Source: an uncultured Dehalococcoidaceae bacterium (GTDB lineage Bacteria; Chloroflexota; Dehalococcoidia; Dehalococcoidales; RBG-16-60-22). From it: a stretch of DNA of 64,000 nt. Below the pieces are notes generated by a model. That model did no database searches. It saw nothing but the letters and a program-made list of their open reading frames with translations, and had not been told where the DNA came from. Position 1 is the stretch's first letter. Each line of letters begins with the position of its first letter. This document shows positions 4,413-55,675 of the stretch, in pieces. The position numbers and the translations under genes were made by a program. Location: positions 5,444-69,443 of the forward strand of contig CAYXWH010000002.1 in the NCBI GenBank assembly GCA_964468755.1, written 5' to 3'.

Positions 4413-4901
4413 ATGACCGTTCTTCCCATCCATACCCTCCCCGACCCTGTCCTGAGGCAGAAAGCAAAGAAAGTCGGAACCATTGACGGCTCCACTAAAA
4501 AACTAATAGCCGATATGCTTGAAACGCTGCACGCCGATCCCGGAAGGGCAGGGCTGGCGGCTCCGCAGGTTGGCGTTTCCTTGCGGATCTGTGTTATCAG
4601 CCTTCCCGATGAAGACGATATTGTCCTGGTAAACCCGGAGATAGTGAAGAAATCCGGTGAGCGCGCTGTGGACGAGGGCTGCCTCAGTGTGCCCGGTTAT
4701 TATGGAGAAATCAAGCGCGCGGAATCAGTTACCGTCAAGGGTCGTGGTCAGGATGGGAAACCGGTGAGAATCAAGGCGGAGGGACTGATGGCGCAAGCCC
4801 TGGAACATGAAATCGACCACCTTAACGGGCGGCTTTATCTGGACCATCTGGAAAGCACGGAAAAACTGCACAGGGTCGAGGCCGAAGAACCCGGACTTTG
4901 A
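4413..4901 (+). CDS. def: Peptide deformylase
   Basis: [16 protein letters not shown] and HEIDHLNG motifs. Confidence 0.9.
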
Positions 4902-4939
4902 ATGGAATGAAGGCTACCGCTTACCGTCACTCCCCCAGA

Positions 4940-5272
4940 TTACCCATCCCGATATTTTGCCATCACGGGCTGGTACTGGCTGGTGACAAGCGTCTTTACC
5001 ACCGCGCCAATTGAGGGGTCAGGCTCCAGGTAAAACAGCTCATCGAGTCGATAATCAGGAAAGGCACGTTTCGCCCCGATAATGAATTTCTCATTGATGC
5101 CGCGTGAGCCTTCACGTACCCGGTACACCTGGCTTACTGACAGCCCCATAGCCCCAGCCAATTCCGACAAGTTACGGTAGTTCCCGTTGCACAAATCAAA
5201 AATTCTTGTCCTGATTATCATAACGCTGCGCTGGTACTGCCAGTTGGCAATATTATAGCATATTAATGACAT
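4940..5272 (-). CDS. Small helix-turn-helix (XRE-like) transcriptional regulator
   Basis: NLSELAGAMGLSVSQVYRVREG resembles an HTH core. Divergent from the permease gene. An alternative start at M18 (5221) is possible. Confidence 0.5.
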   Translation of the reverse strand: MSLICYNIANWQYQRSVMIIRTRIFDLCNGNYRNLSELAGAMGLSVSQVYRVREGSRGINEKFIIGAKRAFPDYRLDELFYLEPDPSIGAVVKTLVTSQYQPVMAKYRDG

Positions 5273-5295
5273 TTGTCAATACATCTGGCAAAAAG

Positions 5296-5324
5296 TTGAC
5301 ACCGAGCCCTGATATTACTACAAT
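5296..5324 (+). promoter_or_regulatory. Sigma70-type promoter for the permease gene (TTGACA-17-TACAAT)
   Basis: TTGACA at 5296-5301, a 17-nt spacer, then TACAAT at 5319-5324, about 36 nt upstream of ATG 5361. Confidence 0.5.
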
Positions 5325-9081: not shown

Positions 9082-11514
9082 ATGCCCCTTATCTCAATTA
9101 GTTGCGCCTGGATTCTGGGAACATTTCTGGGCTCCAAATTTAATTTATCTCCGTTACTGGTGCTCACGGCACTGGTCCCCCTGCCCCTCTTCTTTTTACT
9201 ACGCCGTCACCGTCAAAAAGTAATCGTATCCGTTGTATGCCTCGTTGCCCTGTTTGCCGCCGCTACCTATTCTTATACCAGCTTGCATACCTTCGACGAG
9301 ACCAGTCTGCGCTTCCATAACGACCGTGGTACCGTGACCGTCAAGGGCATCGTCGCCCGGGACCCTGACGTCAGGGACACGAGCACTCGCCTGAATCTCT
9401 CCGCCACCGAAATCAAACTGGGAGACGACTGGCAGGCGGTTGACGGGACGGCGCTGGTGGTGGTGCCCCGTTACCCTGAGTACAGGTACGGCGACCGCCT
9501 CCTTATTACCGGCGAGCTGGCAACACCGCCTCAACTGGATGACTTCGACTACCGGGAATATCTGGCCCATCAGGGGATATATGCCACCATGCTCTACCCG
9601 GAAATAGAGACCATAGAGAGGGAAAAAGGCTCCGCCCTGATGTCGTGGGTCTATTCGGTGCGCAGTCGAATATCCCATACCATCGCCGGGGTCATCCCCG
9701 AGCCGCAGGCATCGCTGGCACAGGCTATTTTACTGGGCATCCGAGGCAATATTCCGCCTGAATTAAAAGCGGACTTCGTCCGCAGTGGCACCGCTCATTT
9801 GCTCGCCATATCGGGGCTTCACCTCAGTATTATCGTTGGCATCCTGCTCAGTGCCGGTATCTGGCTTTTCGGCCGCCGATATTACCTCTATGTCTGGCTG
9901 GCACTGGTGGTCATCTGGCTTTATGTCCTGCTCACCGGCATGCATCCACCGGTGGTACGGGGCGCTATTATGGCCAGCCTGTTTCTATTCGCCGAGCTGC
10001 TGGGCAGGCAGCGCCGCGCCATTACCGCGCTGGTGGCGGCCGCGGCGATAATGGTCGGCATCAGCCCCTATATTCTGGGCGATGCCGCCTTTCAATTGAG
10101 CTTTCTCGCCATGGCAGGGCTCGTCTTCCTGTTCCCCGCTTTTCAGTCGCTGGGCAGACGGGCAATCCGGGCTACGCTGGGGGAAGCGGGGACACCGGTT
10201 GCCCTGGCCAGTACCGCCAGCGATAGTTTCAGCGCAACCCTGGCGGCACTTATCGCGGTATGGCCGGCAATTGCCTACTACTTTGGTATCATCTCCGTGG
10301 TCGGGCCCCTGGCTACCCTTCTGCTCCTGCCCGCCCTGCCGGTGATCATTATCACCGGGGCGCTCACCGGTGTTCTGGGGTTCATCATGCTCCCCGCCGC
10401 ACAGGCTATCGGCTGGCTGAGCTGGCTCTTCCTGTCATACTCAACGGTGGTGGTCGGGGCGCTGGCAACACCGCCACCGTCATCTATCGAGGTTAATTCG
10501 GTTCCCGGCGCTCTGATATGTGCCTACTACGCGATCCTGGCAGCCGTCATCTGGCTTCTGGGACGGCGCCGGCTGACTGTTTCGTTCCCGCAGGCTGCCA
10601 TCAGCCTCAAAAAGAGAATAGGTAATTCCGCCAGCTTCGTTTCCCGCCTTCCCGCCAGATGGACCGTCCCGCCACTGGTCGTGCTCGCCATACTGGCCTC
10701 GCTTACCGCAGTTACCATGCCCGATAATAAACTCCACGTGAGTTTTCTGGACGTTGGTCAGGGTGATGCCATTTTAATCCGTCACGGGACCCAGCAGGTA
10801 CTGGTCGATGGCGGCCCCAGCCCCCGGGCGATAGCGGGGCAACTGGGGAAACAAATGCCGTTCTGGGACCGAACCATTGAGCTACTGGTACTCACCCACC
10901 CCCACCAAGACCACCTCAGCGGACTGGTCGAAGTGCTGCAACGCTTCCGGGTGAAACAGGTGCTCATGGCTGATTGTCCCGTAGATTCACCGCTCTATAA
11001 CCAGTGGTGGCAGCTTATTACCGAAAAGGATATCAAATACACCATAGCCCGGGCGGGTCAGCAGGCAGCCCTGGATGAAGGAATCACCCTGACCGTATTG
11101 CATCCGCCAGCCGGAGCCGGTAACGATACCGGGTTAAATCAGGATAATAAGAGCGTGGTACTGCGATTGACCGACGGTAAGGTCAGTTTCCTGCTCACCG
11201 GCGACATCCTGGCGGATGCCGAACGGGAGCTTGTCGGCAATCGCGCCAACCTCCGCAGCACCGTGCTCAAAGTACCTCACCACGGCGCAGCGACCTCCAC
11301 CACCCCCGAATTTCTGGCGGTCGTCAACCCCCGGCTTGCCGTTATCTCGGTTGGCGCCGATAACAGATTCAACCACCCGGGCGAAGAAGTCATGGTAAGA
11401 CTTCAGGATAGCCCAAACCCGAGATATGTCTATCGCACTGACCAGCACGGTGTCGTTGAATTTACCACTGACGGGGAGCGGCTGTGGGTGGCGACAGAAA
11501 AGAACGCTGACTGA
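9082..11514 (+). CDS. comEC: DNA internalization competence protein ComEC/Rec2 with C-terminal metallo-beta-lactamase domain
   Basis: 810-aa polytopic membrane protein with AHLLAISGLHL, then FLDVGQGDA and THPHQDH (beta-lactamase-fold HxHxDH). Follows comEA. Confidence 0.85.
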   Translation: MPLISISCAWILGTFLGSKFNLSPLLVLTALVPLPLFFLLRRHRQKVIVSVVCLVALFAAATYSYTSLHTFDETSLRFHNDRGTVTVKGIVARDPDVRDTSTRLNLSATEIKLGDDWQAVDGTALVVVPRYPEYRYGDRLLITGELATPPQLDDFDYREYLAHQGIYATMLYPEIETIEREKGSALMSWVYSVRSRISHTIAGVIPEPQASLAQAILLGIRGNIPPELKADFVRSGTAHLLAISGLHLSIIVGILLSAGIWLFGRRYYLYVWLALVVIWLYVLLTGMHPPVVRGAIMASLFLFAELLGRQRRAITALVAAAAIMVGISPYILGDAAFQLSFLAMAGLVFLFPAFQSLGRRAIRATLGEAGTPVALASTASDSFSATLAALIAVWPAIAYYFGIISVVGPLATLLLLPALPVIIITGALTGVLGFIMLPAAQAIGWLSWLFLSYSTVVVGALATPPPSSIEVNSVPGALICAYYAILAAVIWLLGRRRLTVSFPQAAISLKKRIGNSASFVSRLPARWTVPPLVVLAILASLTAVTMPDNKLHVSFLDVGQGDAILIRHGTQQVLVDGGPSPRAIAGQLGKQMPFWDRTIELLVLTHPHQDHLSGLVEVLQRFRVKQVLMADCPVDSPLYNQWWQLITEKDIKYTIARAGQQAALDEGITLTVLHPPAGAGNDTGLNQDNKSVVLRLTDGKVSFLLTGDILADAERELVGNRANLRSTVLKVPHHGAATSTTPEFLAVVNPRLAVISVGADNRFNHPGEEVMVRLQDSPNPRYVYRTDQHGVVEFTTDGERLWVATEKNAD

Positions 11515-48005: not shown

Positions 48006-49064
48006 GTGCTTGAATCCAAGGGGAACGTACTCATTGTCGACGACGAGGAAATTATACGATGGATACTGCACAGGAAGCTGTCCAAGGAAGGCTACACCTG
48101 CGACGAGGCCGGCGACGCTGAACAGGCACTGACCAAACTGAAGGTTGACCCCCGCGAATTGGTCGTTTTGGACATAAATATGCCCGGTAGAGCCGGCAAT
48201 GAGCTACTCCCGCAAATACGGACCGCCTTTCCGGAAACAGCCGTTGTCATGGCGAGCGGAGTTACTGACACCAAGGTCATCGCCCAGTGTATCCGTGATG
48301 GCGCTCATGACTATATCTGCAAGCCATTTCGGCTGGAAGAGGTCTTAGTTAGTATTGGCCGGGCGCTGGAAAAGCGGCGACTGGAACTCCAGATACTGGA
48401 ATGCCAGAAAAACCTGGGGAACAAGTTCAAGCAACAGGTTACCGAAATACGCAAGCTCTTCCTCAGTGCCATCGAGACCCTGGTTGCCTCGCTTGAAGCG
48501 GCTGACCCATATACGGCGGGGCATTCCAAAGAAGTCACCGCTATCGCTCTGAACATCGGGCGGCGACTGGAACTTCCGGCAGAACGGTTGGAAGACCTCA
48601 ACTGGGGAGCCCTGCTCCACGATGTTGGTAAAATTGCCGTCGACCCGCGCATCCTTAACAAACCGGATAAACTTAACCCTGAAGAGTACCGGCACATCAT
48701 GACTCACGCCGTGGTAGGACCCGGTCTGGTACGCCCGCTGGTCAACAGCAGAGTAGTGGAAATCATCTCCCACCACCATGACCGCTACGATGGCAAAGGG
48801 CTTGACCAGATCATCGCTGGTGAGGAAATACCACTGGAAGCGAGAATCGTAACTGTCGCCGACGCCTTCAATGCCATGATTTCGGACCGGCCCTATCGGG
48901 CGGCCATGACTCCTGAAGAAGCCCTTGATGAAGTGAAGAGGAATAGCGGTACTCAATTTGACCCGATGATTGCCAGCGTACTGCTCGAGATGGCAACCGA
49001 AACCCCGCGCAGGTCAAAACCGGCAAATTCGCCGACACCAATCGGGCACAAACCCGGTATGTAA
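48006..49064 (+). CDS. Response regulator receiver fused to an HD-GYP-type (HD-superfamily) phosphohydrolase domain
   Basis: REC domain (VLIVDDEE...DINMPG...K). The HD domain has HSKEV, HDVGK and HHHDRYDGKG. The GYP tripeptide itself is absent (DGKGLD). Confidence 0.8.
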   Translation: MLESKGNVLIVDDEEIIRWILHRKLSKEGYTCDEAGDAEQALTKLKVDPRELVVLDINMPGRAGNELLPQIRTAFPETAVVMASGVTDTKVIAQCIRDGAHDYICKPFRLEEVLVSIGRALEKRRLELQILECQKNLGNKFKQQVTEIRKLFLSAIETLVASLEAADPYTAGHSKEVTAIALNIGRRLELPAERLEDLNWGALLHDVGKIAVDPRILNKPDKLNPEEYRHIMTHAVVGPGLVRPLVNSRVVEIISHHHDRYDGKGLDQIIAGEEIPLEARIVTVADAFNAMISDRPYRAAMTPEEALDEVKRNSGTQFDPMIASVLLEMATETPRRSKPANSPTPIGHKPGM

Positions 49065-49139
49065 TCAGAACCGGTGCCGTAGCCCCGCATTTATGTCATT
49101 TAAATTATCTTCATATGCCCCAAAAAACAGGCAATACTC

Positions 49140-49168
49140 TTGAAATCTTCAATTTCTTGTGATATAGT
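49140..49168 (+). promoter_or_regulatory. Sigma70-type promoter with extended -10 (TTGAAA-17-TGaTATAGT)
   Basis: TTGAAA at 49140-49145, a 17-nt spacer ending in TGA, then TATAGT at 49163-49168. Predicted TSS near 49175. Confidence 0.5.
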
Positions 49169-49198
49169 ATGTCGGAATTAGATTTGGGAAATGCGTTT

Positions 49199-49258
49199 AT
49201 GCAACTGAACTACTACGCATCATATTACTATTACGCGTATTATTACCATGAGCGCTAA
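49199..49258 (+). CDS. Candidate regulatory leader peptide MQLNYYASYYYYAYYYHER (9 Tyr of 19 codons)
   Basis: My own translation. ATG 49199 lies 8 nt after GGGAA, and the stop TAA is at 49256-49258. It is below the 60-aa cutoff of the ORF track. Its 3' end and stop are embedded in alternative RNA helices. Confidence 0.45.
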   Translation: MQLNYYASYYYYAYYYHER

Positions 49259-49323
49259 CAGTGCTCTTGGGGGCTGGTTGCATAAAAAAGATAAAGCGCA
49301 CTAAATAAAAAAGAAAACCAAGC

Positions 49324-49352
49324 AAAAACCCTCCCAAGAAGGAGGGTTTTTT
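49324..49352 (+). terminator. Intrinsic terminator (attenuator segment 3:4) upstream of the TRAP operon
   Basis: AAAAACCCTCC (49324-49334) pairs with GGAGGGTTTTT (41-51), with loop CAAGAA and a T6 run at 49347-49352. Confidence 0.65.
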
Positions 49353-49454
49353 AATTATAAGGCACCATGGTGAAAATTGTGAGCTGAGGTGGTGATACCA
49401 TGTAGACAGGCAGAGAACAAAATGGAAAATAACAAAAATTTCTGGAGGTGACAT

Positions 49455-50549
49455 ATGAAAAAAATAGTACCCCTGTTACTATTGCCGTTGCTACTAGTCC
49501 TGCCTCTATTTGGTGCCTGTACCGCTCAAGAACCAGAGGTAATTGAACTATCCTACAGTAACTTCTTCCCGCCAACCCACTTCCACTCCATACTGGCCGA
49601 GCAATGGACAAAAGAGATTGAGAACCGCACCGACGGCCAGGTCAAGTTCACCTACTATCCGGGCAGTGCCTTGCTCGCCAAAGACCAGGTGTATGATGGT
49701 ATCGTTCAGGGTATCGCCGATGTCGGCATGTCCTGCCTTATCTATACCGCCGGCCGTTTTCCCGCCAGTGAGCTGGTTGACCTCCCCCATGCCTATCCCA
49801 ACGGATGGGTCGCCACCAAGGTAGCCAATGACTTCTACCAGGAGTTCACGCCCGCCGAATTCGATGATGCTCACCTGCTTTATTTTCACGCCCACGGTCC
49901 GGGGGTAATTTTCACCGCCGAAAAGCCGGTACGTAAAATGGACGACCTCAAGGGACTGTTAATAAGAGCAACCGGGGCTGGCGTAAGAATAATGGAAGCC
50001 CTGGGGGCAACCGGGCATGGCGCCGGTCAGCCGGAGGCTTACGAGTTGCTGTCCAAGGGCATAGTCGACGGCACCTATACCCCGCGTGAAGTACTCAAAG
50101 GCTGGAAGCAAGCCGAGGTAGTCAACTACGTAACCAATTGCTACCAGGTCGGTAATACCACTGATATGTACGTGGCTATGAACAAGGACAAGTGGAATGC
50201 CCTTCCCGATGATATCAAGAAGGTGTTTACCGAGGTCAGCCAGGAGTGGATAGAGAAACACGGTATGGTCTGGGACTACTATGACAAGGTAGCCGTTGAG
50301 TACTTCCTCACCTTCGAGGGCAGGGAAGTAATCGAACTGCCGGCCGAGGAAATGGCGCGCTGGGTAGCCGCCACTGAAGGCGTAATCACCGATTACCTGG
50401 ATGAGCTTACCGGTAAAGGACTGCCGGCTGCGGATTACCAGGAATACCTGAATGAACGCGTAGCCTACTGGTCCCAGCAGTCGCCATCGACCGATCAGAG
50501 TGTCAACTGGGTAAAGTCCGAAGTGGAACCGCTGGTACCGGCACAATAA
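49455..50549 (+). CDS. TRAP transporter substrate-binding protein (DctP family), lipoprotein
   Basis: Signal peptide ending LFGAC. DctP-like body about 340 aa long, including an LIRATGAG region with an Arg that could be the DctP-family carboxylate-binding residue (not aligned). SD GGAGG before the ATG. Confidence 0.85.
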   Translation: MKKIVPLLLLPLLLVLPLFGACTAQEPEVIELSYSNFFPPTHFHSILAEQWTKEIENRTDGQVKFTYYPGSALLAKDQVYDGIVQGIADVGMSCLIYTAGRFPASELVDLPHAYPNGWVATKVANDFYQEFTPAEFDDAHLLYFHAHGPGVIFTAEKPVRKMDDLKGLLIRATGAGVRIMEALGATGHGAGQPEAYELLSKGIVDGTYTPREVLKGWKQAEVVNYVTNCYQVGNTTDMYVAMNKDKWNALPDDIKKVFTEVSQEWIEKHGMVWDYYDKVAVEYFLTFEGREVIELPAEEMARWVAATEGVITDYLDELTGKGLPAADYQEYLNERVAYWSQQSPSTDQSVNWVKSEVEPLVPAQ

Positions 50550-50637
50550 ACTCTGGTACAATAACTATCAGTGGTTTTATGGGGGTGCCTGTTTGGAGCC
50601 AGTTCCGACAGGTACCCCCACAGTGTGATTGAGTAAC

Positions 50638-51138
50638 ATGTCAGGCAAGATTGACTCATGGACAAAGTTCACCGAATCGTGTAGCAAGTGGCTCAATTGG
50701 ATCGGCGGTGTCGGTCTGGTGGCAATGCTTGTTCTTACCACCACCGATATTATCGGCGTCAAGCTCTTCAAGTGGCCCGTCCCCGGCGCCGTTGAGATGG
50801 TCGGCTTTCTGGGCGCGATGATAATTTCCTTTGCCATGGCGTACACCCTGTTCGTTCGCGGTCATATTCAGGTGGAATTCTTTGTCCAGCACCTGCCCCG
50901 GCGAGGTCAGGCAGCAACCACCGCCATCGTCTCCCTGCTGGGGCTGGGGCTGTTTGTCCTGCTTGCCTGGCAGAGCTACGAGTACGGCCGTGTGCTCCAA
51001 ATCACCGGAGAAGTTTCCATGACCCAGCGTATACCCTTTTATCCCTTCGTCTACGCGATTGCCTTTTGCTGTATCCCCGTCTGCCTGGTACTGGTGATGG
51101 ACTTCACCAAATCGATAATGAAAGTGGTGAAAAAGTGA
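50638..51138 (+). CDS. TRAP transporter small permease (DctQ family)
   Basis: About 166 aa with four hydrophobic segments. Positioned between the DctP and DctM genes. Confidence 0.8.
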   Translation: MSGKIDSWTKFTESCSKWLNWIGGVGLVAMLVLTTTDIIGVKLFKWPVPGAVEMVGFLGAMIISFAMAYTLFVRGHIQVEFFVQHLPRRGQAATTAIVSLLGLGLFVLLAWQSYEYGRVLQITGEVSMTQRIPFYPFVYAIAFCCIPVCLVLVMDFTKSIMKVVKK

Positions 51139-52439
51139 GTCCGGTTGCAATTGGCATCATCGGCATTTTCGTCCTGATTTTGATTTTTCTCCTGGGAATG
51201 CCGGTGGGCTTCGCCATGGGCCTGGTCGGGCTGGCTGGTTTCTGCTATCTGGTCTCCCCGGAAGCAGGATTGAGCCTGCTGGCGCGGGATGTCTTCACCA
51301 CGTTCTCTTCATACTCCCTTACCGTGATACCCATGTTTGTCTTCATGGGCTCAATTGCCTACGCATCAGGCATGAGCCGTCGGCTCTACGAAGCCAGTCA
51401 CACCCTGTTCGGCGAAATGCGCGGGGGGCTTATTATGGCAACCATTGCCGGCTGCGCCGGCTTCGCTGCCATCTGTGGCTCTACCAGTGCCACTGCCGCC
51501 GCCATGGGCCGGGTATCCCTCCCCGAAATGAAACGATATAAGTACAATGACGCCCTGGCTACCGGCAGTGTCGCCGCCGCCGGCAGTCTGGGAATATTAA
51601 TCCCGCCCAGTACCATTTTCATTGTTTACGGGATACTGACCGAGCAGTCCATCGGCAGGCTTTTCCTCGCCGGGGTTTTCCCCGGGATTATCCTCGCCTC
51701 ACTCTTCATGGTTACCGTGGCGGTCATCTGCTGGCGGTACCCCCACCTCGCCCCGGCCGGAGAACCGACCAGCTACCGCGAGAAAATTGAAGGTATCACC
51801 GGCATCAGCGAGATGCTCGTCCTCTTTGTCATGGTAATGGGCGGGCTGTTTCTCGGCTGGTTCAGCCCGGTGCAGGCTGGCGCCGCCGGAGCCGCCGGTG
51901 CTCTGCTCATCGGGCTTGCCCGACGGCAGTTAAACTGGGACGGGTTCCTCTTTGCCGTCAAGGACACCCTGAAGGTGACCTGCGAGATTATCGTCATCGT
52001 TACCGGCGCGGTGATACTGGGTCACTTCATCGCTGTTGCCAAGATTCCCTTTATCCTGACACAGTGGGTAAGCGAACTTTCCCTGCCCACGGTAGTGGTG
52101 ATGGGCGTGATTGTCCTGATGTACCTGTTCGGTGGTTTCTTCATGGACGCGCTTGCCCTGATTACCCTGACCATCCCCATCATCTACCCGCTGGTGCTGT
52201 CCCTCGGCTTTGACCCGATATGGTTCGGTGTGATAATAGTATTGGTGACCGAAATGGGAGTAATTACACCCCCGGTGGGTATCAACGTATACGTTATCAA
52301 GGGAATTGCCGAGGATGTGTCTCTGGAAACCATCTTTAAAGGAGTTTTCCCCTTCCTTATCGCGCTGATTGTTGCCGTAGGGATACTAATTGCCTTTCCC
52401 CAGATTGCCACTTTTCTACCCGGTATGGCCACCTATTAA
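51135..52439 (+). CDS. TRAP transporter large permease (DctM family)
   Basis: About 434-aa polytopic protein. GTG 51135 overlaps the dctQ stop (GTGA). The ORF track's earlier start at 51066 lies inside dctQ. Confidence 0.85.
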   Translation: MSPVAIGIIGIFVLILIFLLGMPVGFAMGLVGLAGFCYLVSPEAGLSLLARDVFTTFSSYSLTVIPMFVFMGSIAYASGMSRRLYEASHTLFGEMRGGLIMATIAGCAGFAAICGSTSATAAAMGRVSLPEMKRYKYNDALATGSVAAAGSLGILIPPSTIFIVYGILTEQSIGRLFLAGVFPGIILASLFMVTVAVICWRYPHLAPAGEPTSYREKIEGITGISEMLVLFVMVMGGLFLGWFSPVQAGAAGAAGALLIGLARRQLNWDGFLFAVKDTLKVTCEIIVIVTGAVILGHFIAVAKIPFILTQWVSELSLPTVVVMGVIVLMYLFGGFFMDALALITLTIPIIYPLVLSLGFDPIWFGVIIVLVTEMGVITPPVGINVYVIKGIAEDVSLETIFKGVFPFLIALIVAVGILIAFPQIATFLPGMATY

Positions 52440-52480
52440 GCCGGCCGGTATGACCGCCCTTGCAGGAGGTACATAAAACA

Positions 52481-54028
52481 ATGACCATAGCCGAGATGCT
52501 GGCAAGAAACGCCCGCATGTACCCGGAAGATAGTGCCCTCATTGAACTCAAGCCGAGCCAGAAGCTCCGAAAGGAAATCAACTGGAAGACGTTTGATGAA
52601 CGGGCTAACCGGATTGCCGGTGCGCTTATGCAACGAGGAGTGGGCAAAGGCGATAAAGTCATCCACCTGATGATGAACTCGATAGAATGGCTGGAAGCCT
52701 ACTTCGGCATCATCAGGACCGGCGCCTGGGCTGTACCACTCAACTTTCGCTTTACCAGCCAGGACATCAAGTACTGCGCTGACATTGCCGAAGCCAGGGC
52801 AATGATACTGGGCGAGGAGTTTATTGAGCGCGTGGCAGCCGTCCGCTCCCGGCTTACCACGATTAAAGACTATATTTACGTCGGCGCGACAACACCACCG
52901 GACATGGAAAGCTTCGAGGACATAATTGCCGCATCACCGGCCGAGCCCCCGGCAGTACCGCTCAATGATGACGATGCCTGCGGGCTCTACTTTACCTCGG
53001 GCACTACCGGTACTCCCAAGCCGATTCTGCTCACGCACAAGAATATGGAATGTGCCGCCATCACCGAGAACCGGCACCATTTTCAGCAGCATGATGATAA
53101 TTTTATCCTGCTGCCTCCCCTGTACCATACCGGTGCCAAGATGCACTGGTTCGGCAGCCTGATTGTCGGCGGGCGGGCTACCATCCTGACCGAAATAAGC
53201 CCCCGGTATATCTTTGATGCCGTCCATAGCGAACGGGGAACGATTGTCTGGCTGCTGGTGCCCTGGGCGCAGGATATTCTCAGCGTCATGGACAGTGGTG
53301 AGTTGAACAAAACCGACTACGACCTCAGTTGCTGGCGGCTGATGCACATCGGCGCCCAGCCGGTGCCGCCCAGCCTGGTGCAACACTGGCTACAATACTT
53401 CCCCCGTATGCAGTATGACACCAATTACGGACTGAGTGAGTCCAGCGGGCCTGGCTGCGTGCATCTCGGCATCGATAATATACAGAAAGTGGGGGCTATC
53501 GGCAGGGCCGGGTTTAACTGGGAAGCACGGATTGTTGATACCCAGGGAACCGACGTGGCCCGGGCAGAAATCGGCGAACTCGTTATCAGGGGTAACGGCG
53601 TGATGAAGGAGTACTACAAGAATCCACGGCAAACCGCCGAAACCATACGAGACGGCTGGCTGTATACCGGGGATATGGCCCGGGTGGACGATGAAGGATT
53701 TATCTACCTGGTCGACCGGAAAAAGGACGTCATCATCACCGGCGGCGAGAATATCTTCCCGGTGGAGATAGAAGATGTGCTGCACGGTCATCCCGGCATC
53801 TATGATGCGGCGGTAATCGGCATCCCTGACCAACGACTGGGGGAGATAGCCGCCGCCGTTATTGACCCCAAACCCGGTGCACAATTGACCGAGGATGAGG
53901 TGAATGCCTTTTGCGAGCAGGAATTACCGAGGTATAAGCGGCCAAGACGCATCATATTCGATAACGTGCCGCGAAATCCCACCGGCAAGATAGAAAAACC
54001 GAAACTAAAAGAGAAATACCACCAGTAG
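52481..54028 (+). CDS. AMP-forming acyl-CoA ligase (ANL superfamily)
   Basis: YFTSGTTGTPKP (P-loop-like motif), YGLSE, GWLYTGDMA, GENIFPVEIE and PRNPTGKIEK. ATG 52481 lies 11 nt after AGGAGG. Confidence 0.85.
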   Translation: MTIAEMLARNARMYPEDSALIELKPSQKLRKEINWKTFDERANRIAGALMQRGVGKGDKVIHLMMNSIEWLEAYFGIIRTGAWAVPLNFRFTSQDIKYCADIAEARAMILGEEFIERVAAVRSRLTTIKDYIYVGATTPPDMESFEDIIAASPAEPPAVPLNDDDACGLYFTSGTTGTPKPILLTHKNMECAAITENRHHFQQHDDNFILLPPLYHTGAKMHWFGSLIVGGRATILTEISPRYIFDAVHSERGTIVWLLVPWAQDILSVMDSGELNKTDYDLSCWRLMHIGAQPVPPSLVQHWLQYFPRMQYDTNYGLSESSGPGCVHLGIDNIQKVGAIGRAGFNWEARIVDTQGTDVARAEIGELVIRGNGVMKEYYKNPRQTAETIRDGWLYTGDMARVDDEGFIYLVDRKKDVIITGGENIFPVEIEDVLHGHPGIYDAAVIGIPDQRLGEIAAAVIDPKPGAQLTEDEVNAFCEQELPRYKRPRRIIFDNVPRNPTGKIEKPKLKEKYHQ

Positions 54029-54171
54029 AACTGTAAAATTAACCGGGCAACAGCCCGTGTATCCACGAAACAAAGCATGCCGCTATCTTTGCCCTCCGGT
54101 AGCTGTCAGTATACTCCAACTAACTTTTTACCCTTCGTCCTTTTTTACAGCATAGCTACTATCGATGAAAC

Positions 54172-54201
54172 GGTTTCCCACCCGACCAGTCGAAACCTTT
54201 T
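54172..54201 (+). terminator. Possible terminator of the TRAP-ligase operon
   Basis: GGTTTC (54172-54177) pairs with GAAACC (54192-54197), with a 14-nt loop, followed by TTTT. Confidence 0.35.
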
Positions 54202-54328
54202 CCCTATAAATGAAAACCAGCCAGATTCATGCTGGGACCATAGATAGAACCCATCCCCCGGATAAGATGACAATGACCGATAAAACAAATATACTATAAT
54301 ACGGAGAGTACGACAGGAGGTTGGTAGA

Positions 54329-55675
54329 ATGATGGCAAACAGAAGTCGGGAAGAAGGCATTGAGTACGTACTCAAGACAGCCCGGGAACATAGTGTCAAG
54401 TTCATACGGCTCTGGTTTACCGATATTCTGGGATTTTTAAAGAATTTTACCATCACCGTGGAGGAACTGGACAGAGCCCTTGCCGACGGGATGGGTTTTG
54501 ACGGCTCGTCCATCGAAGGGTTTGCCCGCATCGACGAAAGTGACATGGTAGCCCTCCCCGACCCCGATACCTTCCGCATACTAACGTCACGGCCTCACGA
54601 GTCCTATGCCATGGCCCGGATGTTCTGCGATATCCTCCTGCCCGGCGGGGAGCCTTTCGACGGTGACCCCCGCTACATCCTGAAGAGAAACCTGAAGCGC
54701 GCCGCTGACATGGGCTATACACTTTACGTCGGGCCGGAACTGGAATATTTCTACTTCCGGGACAGCAACGGTACCGAGCCTCTGGATCAAGGAGGCTACT
54801 TTGACCTGACCCCCCGGGACGCCGCCACTGACATGAGGAAGGAAACCGTGCTCATGCTAGAGGAGATGGGCATCGGCGTGGAATATTCCCACCATGAAGT
54901 CGCTGCCAGCCAGCATGAAATCGATATGCGATATACTGATGCCCTGACCATGGCGGATAACGTGATAACCTACCGGATGATTGTAAAAGAGGTAGCCCTG
55001 AAGTACGGTGTCTATGCCACCTTCATGCCCAAGCCGGTGTTCGGCATAAACGGCAGCGGCATGCATACCCACCAGTCGCTTTTCAAGGGCGACCGCAACG
55101 CCTTCTTCGATAAAAACGACGAATTTCATCTTTCCGGCATAGCCAAATCATACACCGCCGGACTACTCAAACATGCCCCGGAAATAACTTCGGTGACCAA
55201 CCAGTGGGTCAATTCATACAAGCGACTGGTGCCTGGCTATGAGGCTCCGGTATACGTGTCCTGGGCCCGGCGGAACCGCTCTGACCTCATCCGGGTGCCG
55301 GAATACCGACCGGGGAGAGAAAAGGCAACCAGAATCGAAATCAGGTCTCCTGACCCTGCCTGCAATCCGTACCTCGCCTTCAGTGTCATGCTGGCCGCCG
55401 GACTGGAAGGGATTGAGCAAAACTACCCGGTTCCTGAACCGGTGGAGGAAAATGTCTACGAGATGACCGAGCCGGAAAGGAAGGAACGGGGGATAGAGAC
55501 GCTGCCCGCCAGCCTCCTGGAGGCTATCTTGCTAACCGAAAAAAGTGAACTGGTGCGGAAAGCCCTCGGCCAGCACGTCTTTGACGCCTTTATCCAGAAC
55601 AAAAAGATTGAATGGAGCAATTACCGGTCCCAGGTGACCGAATTTGAGCTCAAGAGATACCTGCCTATCCTGTAA
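54329..55675 (+). CDS. glnA: Glutamine synthetase type I
   Basis: VKFIRLWFTDILG, FDGSSIEGF, GPELEYF, and HHEVAASQHEIDMRY motifs. 448 aa. Confidence 0.9.
   Translation: MMANRSREEGIEYVLKTAREHSVKFIRLWFTDILGFLKNFTITVEELDRALADGMGFDGSSIEGFARIDESDMVALPDPDTFRILTSRPHESYAMARMFCDILLPGGEPFDGDPRYILKRNLKRAADMGYTLYVGPELEYFYFRDSNGTEPLDQGGYFDLTPRDAATDMRKETVLMLEEMGIGVEYSHHEVAASQHEIDMRYTDALTMADNVITYRMIVKEVALKYGVYATFMPKPVFGINGSGMHTHQSLFKGDRNAFFDKNDEFHLSGIAKSYTAGLLKHAPEITSVTNQWVNSYKRLVPGYEAPVYVSWARRNRSDLIRVPEYRPGREKATRIEIRSPDPACNPYLAFSVMLAAGLEGIEQNYPVPEPVEENVYEMTEPERKERGIETLPASLLEAILLTEKSELVRKALGQHVFDAFIQNKKIEWSNYRSQVTEFELKRYLPIL

Follow-up and report, generated by a model that had tools for sequence, protein, structure and literature searches.

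A 64,000-nucleotide stretch of the genome of an uncultured Dehalococcoidaceae bacterium (Chloroflexota), hereafter the window, carries a compact operon in which a tripartite ATP-independent periplasmic (TRAP) transporter is joined to an acyl-CoA ligase behind a short leader peptide rich in tyrosine. The genome, labelled G000, comprises 1.72 Mb in 82 contigs and is 93.7% complete. Four genes follow one another on the plus strand: dctP (49455-50549; PF03480, E 4.6e-40; 77.6 bits on NF037995, cut-off 50), encoding a lipid-anchored TRAP solute-binding protein that we assign below to an aromatic-acid clade; dctQ (50638-51138, with an alternative TTG start at 50629; PF04290, E 1.8e-17), for the small membrane subunit; dctM (51135-52439; PF06808, E 6.9e-96; 324 bits on TIGR00786, cut-off 268), for the large permease; and a gene for an AMP-forming acyl-CoA ligase (52481-54028; AMP-binding and AMP-binding_C domains), an ANL enzyme of FadD/4CL-like type that we propose to be an aryl-acetate-CoA ligase. 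Judged by the joint presence of PF03480, PF04290 and PF06808, the first three genes encode a DctP-type TRAP transporter. A previous interpretation of the window from its letters alone (the sequence-only reading) had described four tightly spaced, co-directional genes at these coordinates, and their identities hold, as do the overlap of the dctM GTG start with the dctQ TGA stop as GTGA (51135-51138) and the 41 nt between the dctM stop at 52439 and the ligase ATG at 52481, which has a GGAGG 11 nt upstream of it. The lipoprotein nature that it gave to DctP is likewise borne out by a signal peptide ending in LFGAC, with Cys22 invariant in an alignment of 41 homologues, and the attenuator that it presumed to control the cassette is matched by a promoter, a Tyr-rich leader open reading frame (ORF) and a terminator upstream.

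The tyrosine leader and its genomic setting

The promoter is sigma-70-like (TTGAAA, 17 nt, TG-n-TATAGT; 10/12 matches with an extended -10; 49140-49168, plus strand), in a layout that recurs in a related genome, L045. Behind it on the same strand lie the leader ORF, MQLNYYASYYYYAYYYHER (49199-49258), in which 9 of the 19 codons specify Tyr; a hairpin across the leader stop codon (49246-49271); and an intrinsic terminator (49324-49357) made of a 12-bp stem (49324-49351) and a U-run. The 3' half of the hairpin, TCTTGGGGG (49265-49273), is complementary to the 5' arm of the terminator (49331-49339), making it a candidate antiterminator. A Tyr-rich short ORF set between promoter and terminator, upstream of the genes, marks the element by its sequence as a leader-peptide attenuator.

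Leaders that repeat Tyr alone, each with a terminator, precede the cassette in nine genomes (that of the window together with L045, L046, L047, L048, L049, L050, L094 and L096), and Tyr-only leaders are present on four further metagenome contigs (L167, L176, L187 and L207). The 13 peptides are highly divergent, as MRLTYYTRSYYYLYYYPER, MLVYIVPCGLYYAYYYYYYAVP, MYLALLASYYYSYYMYYMQSCGSSAWEGAT, MLNIYRYTTGYIYYYPGDHRFAWEMRE and MKAYKVFQVYYYSYYYGSTKCAWEAFGIEM illustrate, and what they have in common is runs of Tyr; the terminator is present at every leader-bearing locus. No Phe- or Trp-rich leader was found before the cassette in the 160 loci scanned, the repeated aromatic residue always being Tyr. 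Because the leader precedes the first gene whatever the gene order, standing ahead of the ligase where the ligase is first in the operon (L046, L047 and L049), the element is tied to the operon and not to one gene. In a DctP tree the leader-bearing loci form three well-supported subclades within one unresolved group, and a single origin of the Tyr leaders is possible.

Pairing of the antiterminator is plausible. The segment after the leader stop covaries with the 5' arm of the terminator (CTTGGGAG/CTCCCAAG, CGCTTGGG/CCCAGGCG and GCGCTGGGGGG/CCCTCCCCAGCG in different loci); when folding was constrained by a stalled ribosome, the antiterminator was the minimum-energy structure in just 3 loci. 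An Rfam scan of positions 48500-55000 gave sub-threshold matches only, the best at 28.2 bits against a gathering score of 55.

Elsewhere in the genome, aromatic supply is under control of the same kind. A complete operon for de novo synthesis, aroF (3-deoxy-D-arabino-heptulosonate 7-phosphate (DAHP) synthase)-aroB-aroD-aroE-aroK-aroA-aroC-pheA (chorismate mutase-prephenate dehydratase, CM-PDT)-tyrA, has a second leader-peptide attenuator upstream of aroF, outside the window (C4:40734-40920), in which MITDRLSKTLSVYFWFYYWFTGRSSRGEGLAMK (…SVYFWFYYWF…) is followed by a terminator. Mixed Tyr/Phe/Trp leaders lie upstream of aroF in 29 of 30 Dehalococcoidales relatives (L129-L157), as found by a protein-anchored search, a DNA search being too insensitive (2/40). 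This clade thus appears, on sequence grounds, to use leader-peptide attenuation for aromatic supply. A genome-wide scan for an aromatic-rich ATG ORF followed by a terminator returned two elements only, the aro leader and the cassette leader, and the cassette is therefore the sole Tyr-specific member of this predicted aromatic attenuation regulon.

T-box leaders precede trpE-trpG-trpD (C61:726-990) and ileS (C31:4423-4689), so that one genome, with two T-boxes and two leader attenuators, uses both types of control. Two other short ORFs were rejected: an F-rich one before an ABC transporter (C2:80447), which lacks a terminator and is an artefact of the T-rich promoter there, and a Y-rich one, MYYYDFYYLYTDLRKCFYGRRCTIS, before a second TRAP operon (C52), which has no terminator either. 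That second TRAP operon (about 4780-5300, minus strand) encodes a solute-binding protein with an Ala-Pro linker, and its Y-rich ORF overlaps a GGAAGGAGGTG…TAG motif.

Close to dctP lies a further small element, a start-stop mini-ORF consisting of GAGGTGGTGA and then ATG TAG (49386-49405, plus strand), 50 nt upstream of the gene. Of 81 loci, 15 have a strong Shine-Dalgarno sequence, an ATG and an immediate stop ahead of dctP, whereas shuffled sequences yield 1.2 and 0.5% of genome tiles contain such an element; in these 15 loci (the window, L046-L050, L054, L063, L075, L078, L092, L093, L116, L118 and L123) the mini-ORFs lie 65-144 nt upstream of dctP, and in ligase-first operons they stand between ligase and dctP. 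They may add a second layer of control. At the far end of the cassette, a short GC hairpin without a U-run after the ligase stop (54044-54057, plus strand) is the probable end of the unit, and glnA, downstream of the ligase, has its own promoter (54267-54300). Immediately upstream of the leader is a response regulator gene of REC + HD-GYP type (48006-49064), which has a syntenic counterpart of 77% identity in L045; L041 and L043 carry a gene like it close to their cassettes.

Conservation and genomic partners of the cassette

To place the cassette among its relatives we fetched 80 DctP-centred loci from other species-level genomes (the L-numbered loci), which are related genomes and not independent samples. 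The order dctP-dctQ-dctM-ligase occurs in 46 of the 80, ligase-dctP-dctQ-dctM in 3, and an inverted ligase 2 kb away in 1; there is no ligase in 20, and 10 are too short to judge. Among judgeable loci, then, the ligase is kept beside dctPQM in 50 and absent in 20, and public metagenome contigs carry the same four genes between unrelated neighbours. The four genes do not stand together by chance.

In several relatives the unit is extended by the two genes of an indolepyruvate ferredoxin oxidoreductase (IOR) and by aminotransferase genes. Locus L049 reads promoter, Tyr leader, terminator, ligase, dctP, dctQ, dctM, iorA (after a 21-nt gap) and iorB, with an IorA that scores 806.8 bits on TIGR03336 (cut-off 650.9), and L046 has the same order as far as its contig end. 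L072 is arranged as iorA-iorB-aminotransferase (class I/II)-dctP-dctQ-dctM-ligase, while in the L104 clade a divergent ligase2-aminotransferase-iorB-iorA cluster lies next to dctPQM-ligase. Altogether, IOR genes are found at most 7 kb from the cassette in 23 of the 80 genomes.

A ligase-centred set of 80 metagenome contigs, with ligase orthologues 67-100% identical, shows the same link from the side of the enzyme. In 8 contigs (L165, L169, L173, L178, L193, L195, L204 and L205) iorAB directly adjoins the ligase on the same strand, and in a further 7 it is no more than 8 kb away; the ligases concerned are 67-81% identical to that of the window. The transporter at these loci varies (dctM-lig-iorA in L165, MFS-lig-iorAB in L169, ABC transporter-lig-iorA in L178), and the company that the unrelated TRAP, MFS and ABC classes all keep with one type of ligase and IOR speaks for a sequence of uptake, thioesterification and IOR action. 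The genome of the window itself encodes both IOR subunits, iorA (722 bits, cut-off 651) and iorB (C4:2506-5452, minus strand), and gives six aminotransferase matches, with several enzymes of class I/II; by sequence, then, the alpha and beta subunits are present, and in the operons of relatives they are linked to the activating enzyme.

Some loci depart from these arrangements. In L193 (243-7954), iorA-iorB follow a tandem array of three paralogous ligases of FadD type, which share 42%, 62% and 72% identity with the window ligase and of which there may be one per aryl-acetate; in L177 a family III CoA-transferase gene (9747-10970) lies between ligase and iorAB in a dctPQM-lig-…-iorAB locus. The ligase-free TRAP loci have neighbours of other kinds: an aldehyde:ferredoxin oxidoreductase and a thiamine pyrophosphate/Fe-S oxidoreductase in L116, an adjoining GlcD/GlcF-like FAD oxidase pair in L119 and L120, a BD-FAE-like carboxylesterase in L079 and L091, and an MFS transporter in L061 and L073.

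Receptor clade and ligase family

By sequence, the closest solved relative of DctP is 4n6d (Desulfovibrio salexigens Desal_3247; E 6e-50, 33% identity), followed by 4pgn/4nap (Dde_0634; E 7e-39, 29% identity), by the TarP proteins 7nsw, 7nrr, 7nr2 and 7nqg, and then by 4p56; the marine metagenome proteins 5i5p, 5iga and 5im2 are also among its PDB relatives, and the top 11 PDB sequence matches are all aromatic-acid TRAP receptors. An AlphaFold model made from the 41-sequence alignment (mean pLDDT, the predicted local distance difference test, 91.4) was compared with the PDB by Foldseek, and ranks 1-27 contain only aromatic-acid receptors (E 1e-28 to 1e-23). Their titles include "specific for aromatic acid ligands", TarP_Csal with ferulate, caffeate or coumarate, and TarP_Sse with cinnamate, and among them is the entry of TarP_Rhp in complex with 4-hydroxyphenylacetate; after rank 27 come IseP (isethionate; 1e-21) and C4-dicarboxylate receptors, whose E-values are poorer by a factor of about 100. 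As sequence and predicted fold alike put only aromatic-acid receptors nearest to it, we place DctP in the aromatic-carboxylate clade, to whose members it is 24-33% identical; the ligand itself we infer. Arg171, in an R-x-T-G motif, is invariant in the 41 aligned homologues and is a candidate for the conserved arginine by which DctP-type receptors hold the carboxylate of their substrate. The ligand-bound structures of Dde_0634 presumably include those with indole-pyruvate, indole-acetate and D-Trp, and the ligand of 4p56 we take to be mandelate, a 2-hydroxy acid. A screen by the Enzyme Function Initiative (EFI) identified "indole acids" as TRAP ligands (PMC5812351), and 4NAP is said to bind a D-amino acid (PMC10443332).

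The ligase, of 515 aa, has PF00501 at residues 15-386 (E 3.7e-70) and PF13193 at residues 436-510 (E 1.8e-16). These profiles identify it as a full-length ANL superfamily enzyme of the FadD/4CL type, and its nearest PDB sequences are FadD5, FadD13, feruloyl-CoA synthetase and 4-coumarate-CoA ligases. Phenylacetate-CoA ligase activity is known among 4CL-like ANL enzymes (Penicillium chrysogenum PCL), so that such a fold leaves room for aryl-acetates as possible substrates. The sole PF14535 gene of the genome, for a PaaK-like ligase of 428 aa, lies elsewhere (C14:12227-13513), inside a branched-chain-type ABC transporter operon (C14:9016-14353) that may be a second unit for acid uptake and activation.

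A proposed route to tyrosine, its rivals and its known relatives

Taken together, these observations make it probable, in our judgement, that shortage of Tyr leads through uptake and CoA activation of 4-hydroxyphenylacetate and its reductive carboxylation by IOR to new tyrosine. With ample charged tRNA-Tyr, the ribosome would run through the 19-codon leader and transcription would end at the terminator (49324-49357). When charging of tRNA-Tyr is low, the ribosome would stall on the nine Tyr codons, leaving positions 49265-49273 free to pair with the terminator's 5' arm, and transcription would continue into dctP-dctQ-dctM-ligase. Lipid-anchored DctP would then capture the aromatic carboxylate and DctQM import it; the AMP-forming ligase would make the CoA thioester, which the iorAB product encoded on contig C4 would reductively carboxylate to 4-hydroxyphenylpyruvate, and a class I/II aminotransferase would yield tyrosine. 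The anabolic direction is favoured by the dependence of the importer on a solute-binding protein, by the AMP-forming type of ligase and by the predicted induction when Tyr runs short; because de novo synthesis by aroF…tyrA coexists, salvage would supplement that pathway at lower cost and not take its place. Whether the operon under tRNA-Tyr control in these Dehalococcoidales turns 4-hydroxyphenylacetate that is specifically the waste of neighbours' Tyr fermentation back to tyrosine, by an IOR running in reverse, is a more particular claim, to which we give about an even chance.

The salvage of a Tyr precursor by import, CoA activation, IOR and transamination had been put forward in the sequence-only reading; the operons of relatives and the Tyr leaders support it, where the window alone would not have sufficed. 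Its list of cargoes stands in part. With the ligase and IOR linked, 4-hydroxyphenylacetate, which fits that link, is the best-fitting cargo on sequence evidence; 4-coumarate does not fit it and is disfavoured, and 4-hydroxyphenylpyruvate, which needs no ligase, is possible as a co-substrate. The genome, searched for tyrA/aro and IOR genes, has the full Tyr pathway but also iorAB, and so not the pairing of complete synthesis with a missing oxidoreductase that would speak against salvage.

Several observations pull the other way. About 70 of the 80 cassette genomes are without a Tyr leader, so the general role of the family may be broader, and the relatedness of the sampled genomes tempers what their counts can carry. 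Loss of tyrA in leader-bearing genomes was considered and rejected, all nine keeping the gene, which makes salvage supplementary to synthesis, not a substitute for a lost pathway. Only about one locus in two has an antiterminator whose duplex energy beats at least 95% of shuffles. As to the enzymes, the best NCBIfam model for the ligase is a fatty-acid ligase, PRK06187, at 435.3 bits against a cut-off of 476 (no named fatty-acid-CoA ligase subfamily is reached, and other NCBIfam models are far under their cut-offs), and a PaaK-type ligase, as defined by C-terminal PF14535 and a length of about 430 aa, is ruled out, no PaaK model being among the profile matches. In the genome of the window, iorAB lies on a different contig from the cassette, and IOR is present in 43 of 61 family genomes irrespective of the cassette; common with or without it, IOR presence was dropped as a discriminator, being uninformative where adjacency is informative. 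The gene after iorAB in G000 encodes a PaaI-like hotdog thioesterase (86.8 bits on TIGR02286, hydroxyphenylacetyl-CoA thioesterase, below the cut-off of 118.9), the iorA-iorB-thioesterase trio occurs also in L089, and such a neighbour fits oxidative use of IOR. Finally, since TarP-type receptors bind hydroxycinnamates too, coumarate or phloretate may by analogy also be ligands.

How much of this another explanation would account for depends chiefly on what is asked of the ligase and of the leader. If the importer took up 4-hydroxyphenylpyruvate or 4-hydroxyphenyllactate, Tyr could be reached by direct transamination (the lactate being oxidised first), with the ligase left to a secondary substrate or to a mixed pool including aryl-acetate. 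Such a cargo would suit the presumed indole-pyruvate and mandelate ligands of Dde_0634 and 4p56, respectively, the confirmation of indole acids as TRAP ligands (PMC5812351), the D-amino acid bound by 4NAP (PMC10443332), the place of 4p56 among the nearest neighbours of DctP, the D-2-hydroxyacid dehydrogenase gene divergently upstream in L049 and the GlcD/GlcF-like oxidase genes that flank the TRAP genes in L119 and L120; we nonetheless think it unlikely, because a keto acid needs neither ligase nor IOR, whereas the ligase is the most conserved partner of the TRAP genes, abuts iorAB and is under the Tyr leader even as first gene. Somewhat less likely still, to our minds, is a general role in catabolism or assimilation of aromatic acids from lignin or fermentation (coumarate, phenylpropionates, hydroxybenzoates), as in Rhodopseudomonas palustris TarPQM/CouB, with the Tyr leader a lineage-specific addition. 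TarP proteins are close structural neighbours of DctP, feruloyl-CoA synthetase and 4-coumarate-CoA ligase are among the nearest PDB ligases, most cassettes are leaderless, and some ligase-free TRAP loci adjoin genes for a BD-FAE-like carboxylesterase, an aldehyde:ferredoxin oxidoreductase or a short-chain dehydrogenase/reductase (SDR). Yet in no locus examined did hydratase/lyase, β-oxidation or ring-reduction genes accompany the cassette; its recurrent partners are IOR and aminotransferase, and induction by Tyr starvation would make no sense for a catabolic route.

The same enzymes might also run the other way for energy, with imported aryl-pyruvates converted by IOR to aryl-acetyl-CoA and the ligase reversed so that acyl-CoA, AMP and PPi yield ATP, as an acetyl-CoA synthetase reportedly does in Syntrophus aciditrophicus. 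The thioesterase beside iorAB in G000 and L089 would suit that direction, and the route from 4-hydroxyphenylpyruvate to 4-hydroxyphenylacetate in C. scatologenes is thermodynamically reversible at every step (PMC13285125); but AMP-forming ligases typically favour thioester synthesis (PMC13285125), expression would be turned on by a shortage of Tyr and an aminotransferase is clustered with the genes, all of which makes oxidation very improbable. The leader, for its part, might be no functional sensor of Tyr at all, its Tyr-rich ORF being incidental and its terminator serving the response-regulator gene upstream, and both the lack of an Rfam family at gathering score and the weak antiterminator statistics in several loci would allow this. 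Against it stand 13 divergent leaders that keep only their Tyr runs, the terminator and a position before the first gene of the cassette, a dedicated promoter ahead of the leader, and a genome scan that gave just the cassette and aro leaders; we would be most surprised if the element were incidental.

Were salvage of 4-hydroxyphenylacetate correct, genes would be assigned for the first time in bacteria to uptake and activation in aryl-acid assimilation, and the cassette would offer a case of a leader-peptide attenuator governing precursor salvage instead of de novo synthesis. That aryl-acetates can be built into aromatic amino acids has been known from physiology in rumen bacteria from the 1960s onwards and subsequently in methanogens; to our knowledge the transporter and activating enzyme are largely unassigned. 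The module would name testable candidates for these steps (a TRAP, MFS or ABC importer, a FadD-type ligase, IOR and an aminotransferase), and its Tyr-specific attenuator would tell which amino acid the module serves, a rare kind of functional evidence for an uncultured lineage. It would add Chloroflexota and salvage genes to the range over which leader-peptide attenuation is known to operate, point to cross-feeding in anoxic sediment in which Dehalococcoidales recycle the aromatic fermentation end-products of their neighbours, and supply an annotation rule for several hundred metagenomic ligases now labelled long-chain fatty-acid ligases. The aryl-acid route and leader-peptide attenuation are each already known; a literature search found no description of the two being united in Dehalococcoidales with an importer of TRAP type and a FadD-type ligase, and as far as we found the combination is new.

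The nearest metabolic parallel is the aryl-acid route of Methanococcus maripaludis, rumen bacteria and Bacteroides, which follows the same logic from aryl-acetate through CoA thioester, IOR and aryl-pyruvate to the amino acid. The M. maripaludis route, which the sequence-only reading had invoked, proves sound: PMC4162585, citing Porat 2004, gives aryl acids as feeding an IOR-dependent second route to aromatic amino acids, and PMC13285125 offers a parallel in Bacteroides, where IOR colocalises with an AMP-forming arylacetate-CoA ligase, a pairing argued to be biosynthetic. IORs act on phenyl-, hydroxyphenyl- and indolepyruvate (PMC13285125). Genomic linkage of IOR to an AMP-forming ligase is common to Bacteroides and to the present system, in whose relatives aminotransferases are clustered as well. 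Unlike the known aryl-acid routes, the one proposed here would employ a FadD/4CL-like ligase, not a PaaK-like one, and appears to include in the unit a dedicated importer of the high-affinity TRAP type; it further differs in its Tyr-specific leader control and in its host, a member of the Dehalococcoidales (Chloroflexota) with a full shikimate pathway.

At the level of the receptor, DctP belongs to the same clade as the TarP proteins (7NSW, 7NRR, 7NTD and 7NQG; template-modelling (TM) scores 0.76-0.80), and R. palustris TarPQM/CouB (PMC3610893) likewise pairs a TRAP importer with an ANL CoA ligase. DctP is only 24-27% identical to TarP, however, and no enoyl-CoA hydratase/lyase or MarR regulator accompanies the cassette; IOR and aminotransferase as partners, together with amino-acid attenuation, argue that its role is anabolic, unlike that of the catabolic TarPQM/CouB. 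Desal_3247 (4N6D) and Dde_0634 (4NAP/4PGN/4PGP), which binds indole acids, are the nearest solved relatives and yet only about 30% identical, and come from Desulfobacterota; the comparison with them was one of receptors. The leader shares with trpL, pheL and hisL a short ORF in which codons for the amino acid in control are repeated, an intrinsic terminator and an upstream segment that could compete for the 5' arm of the terminator; compared with these and with Phe_leader (RF01859), it has no Rfam match above gathering score and is specific to Tyr. Whereas classical attenuators control biosynthetic operons, this one, in a member of the Chloroflexota, would control a transporter and a ligase for salvage.

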